Sequence record: KJ909655.1
Direction: 5' to 3' (one strand)
Source of the DNA: Escherichia Stx1-converting recombinant phage HUN/2013
DNA length: 61,137 bases
This document shows, in pieces, positions 30,001 through 33,000 of this stretch (position 1 is the first letter of the stretch; the number at the start of each line of letters is the position of its first letter). A program made the position numbers.

Positions 30001-33000
30001 TGTCATAGATACCAGCAAATCCGAAGGCCAGACGGGCACACTGAATCATGGCTTTATGCCGTAACATCCGTTTGGGATGCGACTGCCACGGGCCGGTGAT
30101 TTCTCTGCCTTCGCGGGTTTTGAATGGTTCGCGGCGGCATTCATCCATCCACTCGGTAACGCAGATCGGATGATTACGGTCTTTGCGGTAAATCCGGCAT
30201 GTACAGGATTCATTGTCCTGCTCAAAGTCCATGCCATCAAACTGCTGGTTTTCATTGATGATGCGGGACCAGCCATCAACGCCCACCACCGGAACGATGC
30301 CGTTCTGCTTATCAGGGAAGGCGTAAATTTCTTTCGTCCACGGATTAAGGCCGTACTGGTTGGCGACGATCAACAATGCGATGAACTGCGCATCGCTGGC
30401 ATCACCTTTAAATGCCGTCTGGCGAAGAGTGGTGATCAGTTCCTGTGGGTCGACAGAATCCATGCCGACACGTTCAGCCAGCTTCCCTGCCAGCGTTGCG
30501 AGTGCTGTACTCATCCGCTTTATACCTCTGAATCAATATCAACCTGGTGGTGAGCAATGGTTTCAACCATGTACCGGATGTGTTCTGCCATGCGCTCCTG
30601 AAACTCAACATCGTCATCAAACGCACGGGTAATGGCTTTTTTGCTGGCCCCGTGGCGTTGCAAATGATCGATGCAGAGTGATTCAAACAGGTGCTGGGGC
30701 AGACCTTTTCCCATGTCGTCTGCCAGTTCTGCCTCTTTCTCTTCACGGGCGATCTGCTGGTAGTGACGCGTCCAGCTCTGAGCCTCAAGACGATCCTGAA
30801 TGTAATAAGCGTTCATGGCTGAACTCCTGAAATAGCTGTGAAAATATCGCCCGCGAAATGCCGGGCTGATTAGGAAAACAGGAAAGGGGGTTAGTGAATG
30901 CTTTTGCTTGATCTCAGTTTCAGTATTAATATCCATTTTTTATAAGCGTCGACGGCCTCACGAAACATCTTTTCATCGCCAATAAAAGTGGCGATAGTGA
31001 ATTTAGTCTGGATAGCCATAAGTGTTTGATCCATTTTTTGGGACTCCTGGCTGATTAAGTATGTCGATAAGGCGTTTCCATCCGTCACGTAATTTACGGG
31101 TGATTCGTTCAAGTAAAGATTCGGAAGGGCAGCCAGCAACAGGCCACCCTGCAATGGCATATTGCATGGTGTGCTCCTTATTTATACATAACGAAAAACG
31201 CCTCGAGTGAAGCGTTATTGGTATGCGGTAACGCCGCGCTCAGGCGGCTTTGATAGTCATATCATCTGAATCAAATATTCCTGATGTATCGATATCGGTA
31301 ATTCTTATTCCTTCGCTACCATCCATTGGAGGCCATCCTTCCTGACCATTTCCATCATTCCAGTCGAACTCACACACAACACCATATGCATTTAAGTCGC
31401 TTGAAATTGCTATAAGCAGAGCATGTTGCGCCAGCATGATTAATACAGCATTTAATAAAGAGCCGTGTTTATTGAGTCGGTATTCAGAGTCTGACCAGAA
31501 ATTATTAATCTGGTGAAGTTTTTCCTCTGTCATTACGTCATGGTCGATTTCAATTTCTATTGATGCTTTCCAGTCGTAATCAATGATGTATTTTTTGATG
31601 TTTGACATCTGTTCATATCCTCACAGATAAAAAATCGCCCTCACATTGGAGGGCAAAGAAGATTTCCAATAATCAGAACAAGTCGGCTCCTGTTTAGTTA
31701 CGAGCGACATTGCTCCGTGTATTCACTCGTTGGAATGAATACACAGTGCTGTGTTTATTCTGTTGTTTATGCCAAAAATAAAGGCCACCATCAGGCAGCC
31801 TTGTTGTAAATGTTGCAGGTATCAAGTAAGTAATTAGATGGAGCGCCATAAATTATGAATTCATCGTTTGTCGGGTCCATCTCCATCTCTTGTCCTATTG
31901 CCATTCTTGCGTCAGTGTCGTCAGCGGCGAAGCATAAAACAGCCCACGCACCCATTGTTTTAAAAAGAACTGCAATTGGCTGTGGTTTTACTGAATTTGC
32001 GTTAGCGCGAAAATCACAAATCGCACTTTCATGAAATTCCATATATCACCTCAAATAAGTGGTTTGCTGCCTAATTTCATTTTCTGGCGACCAACACAAG
32101 TCATCTTGCTGTCAGTTGTTTGGATTTACGGTAGCCTGCCGCGTAAAGAGCTACATTTGGAAGACAAGTTGAGCCTTCATATTTTCTGGTCAACGTTGTC
32201 AGTGTTATTACTTCTGCTCTCATTGCTGGTTTGCGTTTGCATTGTAAGACCACTCGTGATGGGGTTGGCCTGTGTAGTTTGTCGGAGCTAATCGCCTCCT
32301 GACTTTGCAGGTTTGCGCGACGAGCTCTACGGCGAGAAGCTGCGGTGCCTTTAAATTCTGTTTTTCTGGACATAGATTCCTCCCGAATAAACTTTGGCGA
32401 TGCAATCTCGAAGCTCCTCCTGAGACGGTTGCTTCGGCATTGCATCCCACAGCTTATGTGGTTGGGTGATCTGGCTTTTCAGCCACGTAGTCGAGAGTCG
32501 ACGTTGTTTAAAGAGCCTGCCAGTCTGTTCCATTTGGCTTCCAGCGTCCTGCTGATGGTTAAATAGTACGATATGTACTTCACTTGGTCAATACAATTTG
32601 TTCTAAAACGGGGCGTTTTTTTTACAACGCTTTGTATTTAATAGTATTGTTTTTTAGCGTGGGTGTATTGCCTCGGCGATGTAAGGAGAGATCAGAATTG
32701 CGTTGTTTAGTGAGTTGTATCTATTTATTTTCCAATAAATACAATTGGTTATGTGTTTTTTTGGGCGAGAGGAAAAGAAAACCCGGCATGGAGGCCGGGT
32801 TGATGATTAGCGGTGTGGCCTTGAGCGATAATGCTCACACACATGTTCAAGATTTCCATGCCTTATCCGTTCATAGGCATTCACATGAACTTCTCGATCG
32901 AATTGGTCATTCAAATTGTATGTAGACATCTGTGTTTTCTCATATTGGCGGCAGCCCTACAACCGCTTGAAAAAATGTACCAGACGCGCTAAGGTTACAT

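Follow-up and report, generated by a model that had tools for sequence, protein, structure and literature searches.

The DNA analysed here is the 61,137-nucleotide sequence of the Escherichia Stx1-converting recombinant phage HUN/2013 (KJ909655.1; the whole of this stretch is termed the window), and the system in question consists of two nut sites, nutL and nutR, and the gene of an antitermination protein, N. With a probability of about 0.92, these elements form the N/nut module for early antitermination in a Shiga toxin (Stx) phage of the VT2-Sakai/Stx2 II type. This interpretation, which had been put forward in a first-pass annotation of the sequence, is supported by the family to which N belongs, by the placement of the two sites, by compensatory base changes in their boxB hairpins, and by the co-variation of the arginine-rich motif of N with the boxB loop. 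The elements, with their positions and strands, their folding and conservation, the covariation, the family of N, and the co-variation of motif and loop are established here. It is a known system in a known phage and had been read correctly; what goes beyond routine annotation, as judged from sequence comparisons, is a tetraloop class of boxB that is strictly paired with an arginine-rich motif of compact, lambda-like form.

In both nut sites, boxA is followed by a small spacer hairpin, then CUACG, and finally boxB. The nutL site (minus strand, 32517..32472) reads GGCUCUUUAAACAAC-GUCGACUCUCGAC-UACG-UGGCUGAAAAGCCA, and the nutR site (plus strand, 35123..35168) reads CGCUCUUUGUAACAAC-GGACAUUCGUCC-UACG-UCGCUGAAAAGCGA. 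The boxB and boxA-like sequences lie where the first-pass annotation had placed them, and a boxA-like element indeed precedes each boxB, except that the boxA of nutL is GGCUCUUU and not CGCUCUUU: its first base is G rather than C, and seven of its eight bases agree with CGCTCTTT. Its core, GCUCUUUA, is the same as that in the rrn boxA, UGCUCUUUA (PMC2724277 gives the boxA consensus of both rrn and lambda). At both sites, GCUCUUU is located 31 nt upstream of the start of the boxB hairpin. A search for boxA followed by boxB found exactly two occurrences in the window (0.00 expected), and the 20-nt motif CUACGU-S-GCUGAAAAGC-S-AG, with three mismatches at most, likewise occurs exactly twice in the 61 kb (0.04 expected); the element common to the two sites is longer than the first-pass annotation had described. 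Each site has a boxA (CGCUCUU(U)A-like) and then a boxB stem-loop, and the hairpins are stable and supported by covariation.

Folding of both sites, a check proposed with the original annotation, gave a stable hairpin for each isolated boxB (nutL, -7.1 kcal/mol, z -3.4; nutR, -6.5 kcal/mol, z -2.7). The two boxBs had been described as having an identical loop, TGAAAA on 4 bp, and different stems. The loop is indeed shared, but it folds as a GAAA tetraloop on 5 bp because the U and the A beside it pair with each other; the stems do differ, but only at the second pair, which is G-C in nutL and C-G in nutR. Neither loop is a pentaloop of the lambda/P22 type (GAAAA, GAAGA, or GACAA on a 5-bp stem), both being 4 nt long. 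In each of the divergent transcripts, the GAAA loop is read on the sense strand, and that this holds for both sites favours an RNA element.

The nutL and nutR sites of relatives were collected, and base pairs were counted in an alignment restricted to 19 tetraloop-type sites (A2, in which three nutL rows are out of register for the spacer helix), since a joint MAFFT alignment of tetraloop and pentaloop sites (A3) placed gaps inconsistently. In these 19 sites, every cell of the boxB helix is paired (100%), and compensatory changes are found at three of its five pairs (U-A/A-U/C-G, G-C/C-G, and G-C/A-U). The covariation score is 0.464 versus 0.120 in shuffles, a value reached by none of 500 shuffles, and all the slid controls are at or below 0.09. 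The spacer helix is retained with varied sequences (GUCGA/UCGAC, GGUGA/UCACC, and GAUUC/GAAUC in nutL; GGAC/GUCC in nutR); on this alignment, the spacer hairpin is a conserved part of these nut sites, and it is absent from the nut sites of lambda and P22.

The open reading frame (ORF) at 32101..32373 on the minus strand had been called N-like, and this identification holds. Its 90-residue product matches Pfam PF25694 (N_peptide) over residues 1-90 (E 3.4e-32; 111 bits versus a cut-off of 27.9) and PHROG 271, 'anti-termination protein N-like' (E 4e-25), and it aligns with the N proteins of P22, phi21, and H-19B/HK97. A database search found an identical 90-residue protein called 'antitermination protein N' in E. 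coli, along with relatives in Cronobacter and Pantoea; no NCBIfam model matches either the 90-residue form or the 114-residue form. The latter is the form given in public records (NC_004914 and AP000363), where N starts at 32445. The start at 32373 is favoured because of the Shine-Dalgarno sequence GGGAGGA (32384..32378, 5 nt upstream), the start of the Pfam profile, and the 90-residue length of N in named homologues and in the phiSTEC1589 record. The RefSeq record of lambda likewise has an N-terminally extended N (133 residues). N proteins are intrinsically disordered outside their complexes.

An arginine-rich motif, SRRRARRANLQSQ, is present at residues 13-25, as the first-pass annotation had it, and the comparison with known N families that it proposed (alignment A1, with P22, phi21, and H-19B/HK97) upholds membership of the family. 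Within the family, the C-terminus is common and the N-terminal arginine-rich motif is variable. Two segments of HK97/H-19B N are missing from the N of the window: an insertion of 7 residues that follows RRRER, and about 30 residues in the central part. In a two-sequence BLASTP comparison, residues 11-61 align with lambda N 3-60 (35% identity, E 4e-5), pairing AASRRRARRANLQSQE with AQTRRRERRAEKQAQW and HRP..LQCKRKPAMR with NRPILSLNRKPKSR. The homology to lambda N does not extend over the whole length: only the N-terminal 60 residues or so align, and the C-terminal half is of the P22/phi21/H-19B type. Residues 33-52 are the predicted counterpart of the segment of lambda N that binds NusA AR1, which has been reported to be N(34-47) (PMC2724277). 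The C-terminal 24 residues are likely to be the RNA-polymerase-binding end; the corresponding domain of H-19B N (101-127) has been described as binding RNA polymerase (PMC3526286).

That the motif of N reads the boxB loop was a further claim of the first-pass annotation, and it is borne out to the extent that motif and loop classes co-vary. In relatives (designated by L numbers) in which N has no insertion (RRR[AE][RH]RAxLQ), both boxBs have GNRA tetraloops; this set comprises the window, L003, L008, L009, L024-L031, g341c, and L010, and its loops are GAAA except for GCAA at three sites (nutL of L003 and L008 and nutR of L024). Where N has the insertion (RRRERLKAKALANG, RRRERLKSAAISRG), as in HK97, Min27, SPN9CC (nutR), and L032, the loops are GACAA. 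Near-isogenic pairs give the same result. The nut sites of L025 and L032 have identical boxA, spacer hairpin, and flanks, boxB alone being changed (UGGCU-GAAA-AGCCA to UGGCC-GACAA-GGCCA and UCGCU-GAAA-AGCGA to UCGCC-GACAA-GGCGA), and the differences between their N genes are essentially confined to the arginine-rich segment. A parallel swap is found on the long N body, between L029 and g341c (no insertion, GAAA) and HK97 (insertion, GACAA), the nutR sites of L029 and HK97 differing by one boxA base and the single extra C of the loop. The occurrence of the same swap on two different N bodies argues for a functional pairing of motif and loop.

Viral contigs were also retrieved by the boxB pattern alone, independently of the protein, N being located afterwards by hidden Markov model. 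The insertion is absent from N in 74 of the 74 tetraloop-pattern contigs with a scorable N, which have 32 distinct N-termini and N proteins of 90-121 residues, bar two genes cut short. Two further tetraloop contigs, one with N cut off by the contig end, fall outside the spacing test, and neither N-terminus has the insertion. All 40 GACAA-pattern contigs have it (37 by the spacing test and three by the same RRRERLKAKALANG sequence). There are hence no exceptions to the pairing among these 74 + 40 contigs, which are related, so that the counts are not of independent events. A scan of genome contigs yielded 15 loci, among them several with another N type or with a C-terminal fragment. By comparative genetics, the boxB specificity of N is assigned to its arginine-rich motif.

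The chances are about even that the compact lambda-like motif reads a canonical GNRA tetraloop, with no flipped-out base, and that this class is orthogonal to the GACAA-pentaloop N of HK97/H-19B. If so, a switch of class would consist in the swap of a motif cassette (+/-7 residues) and the insertion of one loop base in each nut site, and in some lineages the closing base pair would have changed along with the inserted base. In lambda, older work suggested that the flipped-out base of the boxB loop contributes to the engagement of NusA; if the flipped-out base of lambda and P22 has this role, the tetraloop class would assemble the complex without that contact. No experimental study of this specificity class was found in the literature searched, two likely sources being out of reach.

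Some loci met in these searches are of separate interest. In the SPN9CC-type Salmonella phages L007 (~4383-4397, plus strand) and L189, which have an insertion-type N and a GACAA hairpin in nutR, the nutL position is occupied by GCUCC-GUCAA-CGAGC, with only 4 bp and a 7-nt loop, a degenerate or variant nutL. Locus L013 (~1794, plus strand) and protein P0079 represent another widespread 90-residue member of the N family, with a differing motif, DDNARNRRRARRQAQREQ; its nutL has a 6-bp stem with a CGAAAU loop (UCCCGC-CGAAAU-GCGGGA); this type is apparently a further specificity class in lambda-like phages of E. coli. In L171, with an N of the HK97 type, there is no recognisable boxB within 260 nt upstream (~1440-1700), and the leader seems to contain extra sequence, with nutL further off or missing. 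Finally, contigs with the N of enterobacterial lambdoid phages are filed under a 'Segatella copri' metagenome-assembled genome (L009 and L013; JAJXBQ01) and a Xanthomonas pisi assembly (L011, a 394-bp contig), probably through binning or contamination.

A mechanism can be proposed in which the pL and pR transcripts would each carry a nut site with boxA, the short spacer hairpin, CUACG, and boxB, and translation of the pL transcript a short way past nutL would yield the 90-residue N. The N-terminal arginine-rich helix of N would bind the GAAA tetraloop of boxB on both early transcripts, boxA would recruit NusB/NusE, the central HRP...KRKP segment of N would contact NusA, and its conserved C-terminus would engage RNA polymerase. 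The polymerase would then pass the terminators downstream of N and tR1 ahead of cII-O-P. Physical binding, dependence on Nus factors, and actual read-through are what we infer from homology and anatomy. The three terminator-like sites downstream of N may reflect a need for antitermination.

Several points weigh against this interpretation. Rfam is without a nut family and so makes no independent RNA-family call: a scan of 31000-37000 (E-value mode) found no nut or boxB family, the only real match being the cIII thermoregulator. A search of the PDB with the sequence of N, up to an E of 10, found no match. Since about 30 central residues of H-19B N are absent here, contacts with Nus factors may differ from those of the characterised relatives. 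No experimental evidence for this N/boxB pair was found in the literature searched, again with two likely sources out of reach. Moreover, when nutL is folded in a longer RNA, pairing of boxA with the 3' half of boxB wins, so boxB is not thermodynamically forced.

This last observation is the basis for another explanation, in which boxA and the 3' half of boxB are paired in the functional form of nut, enclosing the spacer hairpin, and N resolves or stabilises the switch. This pairing has the lowest energy both in the 60-nt RNAs of nutL and nutR and in the complete pL leader, and a paper on H-19B by Neely and Friedman (2000) is said to contain 'alternative NUT RNA structures' in its title. Against it, the z-score of this fold is only -1.3 and not significant, boxB forms in its place in the longer context of nutR, and complementarity between boxA and boxB is expected anyway from a U-run opposite an A-rich loop. 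By inspection, the base before GCUCUUU and the 3' arm of boxB co-vary inconsistently, the nutL sites of L003, L026, L027, and L028 breaking the pair. A switch of this kind is therefore improbable.

Still less probable is a boxB with a 4-bp stem and a 6-nt UGAAAA loop read by N as a hexaloop. The U and A beside GAAA are invariant in the 19 tetraloop-type sites, so that covariation within this class is unable to prove that they pair. However, folding places them in the stem, and at this position the sister class has C-G (nutL and nutR of L032) or U-G (nutR of SPN9CC), a compensatory or wobble change. The homologous position is closed in the same way in the boxB of lambda (GCCCU-GAAAA-AGGGC) and P22 (GCGCU-GACAA-AGCGC), and it is reportedly a closing U-A pair in the N-peptide complexes solved by Legault et al. 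(1998) and Cai et al. (1998).

A role of the two hairpins as terminators, attenuators, or palindromes bound by protein at the DNA level, instead of as RNA sites for N, can practically be set aside: they are short G+C-rich inverted repeats, and a simple terminator scan flags the nutL spacer hairpin as terminator-like on the opposite (plus) strand, but on the transcribed strand there is no U-tract after either boxB, the operators are annotated at other positions, the GAAA loop is conserved on the sense strand of each divergent transcript, as fits an RNA, and the type of loop follows the arginine-rich motif of N.

The N/nut module lies in a standard lambdoid immunity region (Table 1). The stretch 31900-35700 is 100% identical, over its full length, to Stx2 converting phage II, Stx1 converting phage, and the PA-series phages of O157:H7, and 99.9% identical to VT2-Sakai. 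In the matching Stx phage records, the ORF is labelled N, 'similar to phage HK97 N; antitermination', and operators and promoters are marked for both pL and pR, the nut sites being without annotation. Both nut sites are on the sense strand, one located between pL and N and the other between cro and tR1/cII; nutR starts 11 nt past the cro stop and lies 86 nt upstream of cII. The layout is that of the lambda record, where Nutl is annotated between pL and N and Nutr between cro and cII. Two further elements of the region are a match to the Rfam Lambda_thermo family, the cIII thermoregulator, at the start of the cIII gene (31122..31180, minus strand; 88.5 bits, E 3e-21), and a perfect hairpin, CCGCUU-AAU-AAGCGG (35105..35119, plus strand), across the cro stop codon and directly before the boxA of nutR.

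Table 1. Features of the N/nut module and its surroundings, in window coordinates.
Feature	Position	Strand	Basis or remark
nutL boxA, GGCUCUUUAAACAA	32504..32517	-	sequence, pattern search, conserved in relatives
nutL spacer hairpin, GUCGA-CUC-UCGAC, then CUACG	32490..32502	-	present in every fold
nutL boxB, UGGCU-GAAA-AGCCA (UGGCUGAAAAGCCA)	32472..32485 (loop 32480..32477)	-	5 bp + GNRA tetraloop
nutR boxA, CGCUCUUUGUAACAA	35123..35137	+	sequence, pattern search
nutR spacer hairpin, GGAC-AUUC-GUCC, then CUACG	35139..35150	+	folds; in relatives, stem conserved and loop variable
nutR boxB, UCGCU-GAAA-AGCGA (UCGCUGAAAAGCGA)	35155..35168 (loop 35160..35163)	+	5 bp + GNRA tetraloop
pL promoter, TTGACC, 17 nt, TACTAT	32563..32591	-	consensus scan; transcript start near 32556
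Long N-leader hairpin, from boxB to N ribosome-binding site	32389..32455	-	folding
N antiterminator gene	32373..32101	-	90 residues
N arginine-rich motif, residues 11-26, AASRRRARRANLQSQE	32296..32343	-	alignment A1; without 7-residue insertion
N residues 33-52, LHRPTPSRVVLQCKRKPAMR, aligned to lambda N 32-48, NRPILSLNRKPKSR	32218..32277	-	BLASTP
N C-terminal 24 residues, CLPNVALYAAGYRKSKQLTAR	32104..32175	-	alignment A1, tblastn; common to P22, phi21, and H-19B/HK97 N
Intrinsic-terminator-like site 1, pL operon, downstream of N	31781..31802	-	terminator scan
Intrinsic-terminator-like site 2, strong, 8-bp stem then UUUUUUAU	31635..31656	-	terminator scan
Intrinsic-terminator-like site 3, pL operon	31197..31216	-	terminator scan
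cI	34788..34126	-	HTH_3 and Peptidase_S24 domains
cro-like gene	34897..35112	+	ORF map
Hairpin UAUGCGU-UUCC-ACGCAUA, nutR-cII spacer, region corresponding to tR1	35198..35215	+	fold
cII	35254..35550	+	Pfam Phage_CII, E 1e-32

The pL promoter found by the scan coincides with the operator/promoter features annotated in NC_004914 (the coordinate of that locus + 30399 gives the window coordinate). Along the pL transcript, nutL has its boxA near +40 and its boxB near +72 to +85, and the AUG of N follows near +184. For the pL leader (192 nt), the folding energy is -66 kcal/mol (z -3.6), unmatched by any of 200 shuffles. Relatives have comparable inverted repeats in the N leader, and a motif, CCAAAGUU, is repeated there directly ahead of the Shine-Dalgarno sequence. 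The long leader hairpin resembles that of lambda, where a hairpin processed by RNase III modulates the translation of N. On the other side of the region, the stretch from the boxB of nutR to cII has two differences in about 87 positions with respect to Min27, which has an N of the H-19B/933W type, and the nutR/tR1 of H-19B is a Rho-dependent terminator suppressed by N (PMC3526286); by analogy, the nutR-cII spacer of the window may act as the terminator tR1. A strong terminator-like hairpin, AACCCGGCC...GGCCGGGUU followed by UUCUUUUCC (32780..32801, minus strand), is located just upstream of pL and past the cI-side ORF 33624..33103, and probably ends the immunity (pRM) transcript before pL.

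Between 759 and 819 of 5,426 complete genomes of E. coli (~14%) contain DNA of the nutL-N module, whose N is often annotated merely as 'hypothetical protein'. In Stx phages, antitermination by N gates early gene expression, upstream of Q and hence of toxin production. The gain for annotation is the placing of two unannotated nut sites and the correction of the start of N in widely used reference records. The relatives also constitute a natural data set in which an arginine-rich peptide and an RNA loop shift specificity jointly, between tetraloop and pentaloop. They may be of interest for N-peptide/boxB pairs as orthogonal RNA tethers and for studies of the assembly of boxB, N, and NusA.

Among known systems, P22 gp24 and phi21 N belong to the same Pfam family as the N of the window and have the same C-terminal LPxVALYAAGxRKSKQxTAR; their arginine-rich motifs, GNAKTRRHERRRKLAIER in P22 and GTAKSRYKARRAELIAER in phi21, differ from that of the window. 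The P22 boxB is GCGCU-GACAA-AGCGC, and its nutL has neither a spacer hairpin nor CUACG.

Lambda has the same gene order and the same order of boxA and boxB. The arginine-rich motifs of the two N proteins, SRRRARRANLQSQE and TRRRERRAEKQAQW, agree at 8 of 14 positions, and the position of lambda Trp18 is occupied by Glu in the window; the NusA-binding segment aligns, whereas the C-terminal half is unrelated, and lambda N was not retrieved by the family searches. In both phages, the boxB stem has 5 bp with a closing U-A pair, and the loop is rich in G and A. However, the lambda loop is a pentaloop (GAAAA or GAAGA), which, according to what Legault (1998) is said to have found, mimics the GNRA fold by flipping out one base, whereas that of the window is a plain GNRA tetraloop. 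The spacers of lambda are without a hairpin, unlike those of the window.

In epsilon34/g341c, P22-like phages with a Salmonella host, N (gp43, 120 residues) has a motif of the same class as that of the window, GRRRERRAALQ, with no insertion, but its body is of the long HK97 type, whereas that of the window is short (90 residues). In the g341c record (NC_013059), 'Putative NutR (similar to NutR Epsilon34)' is the 14-mer TCGCTGAAAAGCGA, identical to the nutR boxB of the window. In the epsilon34 genome paper of 2008, the divergence of the first 27 residues of N led to the prediction of 'a novel BoxB specificity' (PMC2629481). As regards specificity, epsilon34/g341c is the closest described relative.

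The N of the H-19B/HK97/933W type (127 residues, motif RSRRRER), studied in the laboratories of Friedman and Sen, belongs to the same Pfam family as that of the window, with about 40% identity overall and an identical C-terminal end. The nut sites have the same order of boxA, spacer hairpin, CUACG, and boxB, and the flanks of nutR down to cII are nearly identical. In H-19B, nutR has two hairpins, and boxB is protected by N (PMC3526286). The loop of HK97 and Min27 is GACAA (5 nt), compared with GAAA (4 nt) in the window, and the nutR sites differ essentially by that one C. The N of H-19B/HK97 is thus the closest characterised relative, with the same site architecture and a pentaloop.

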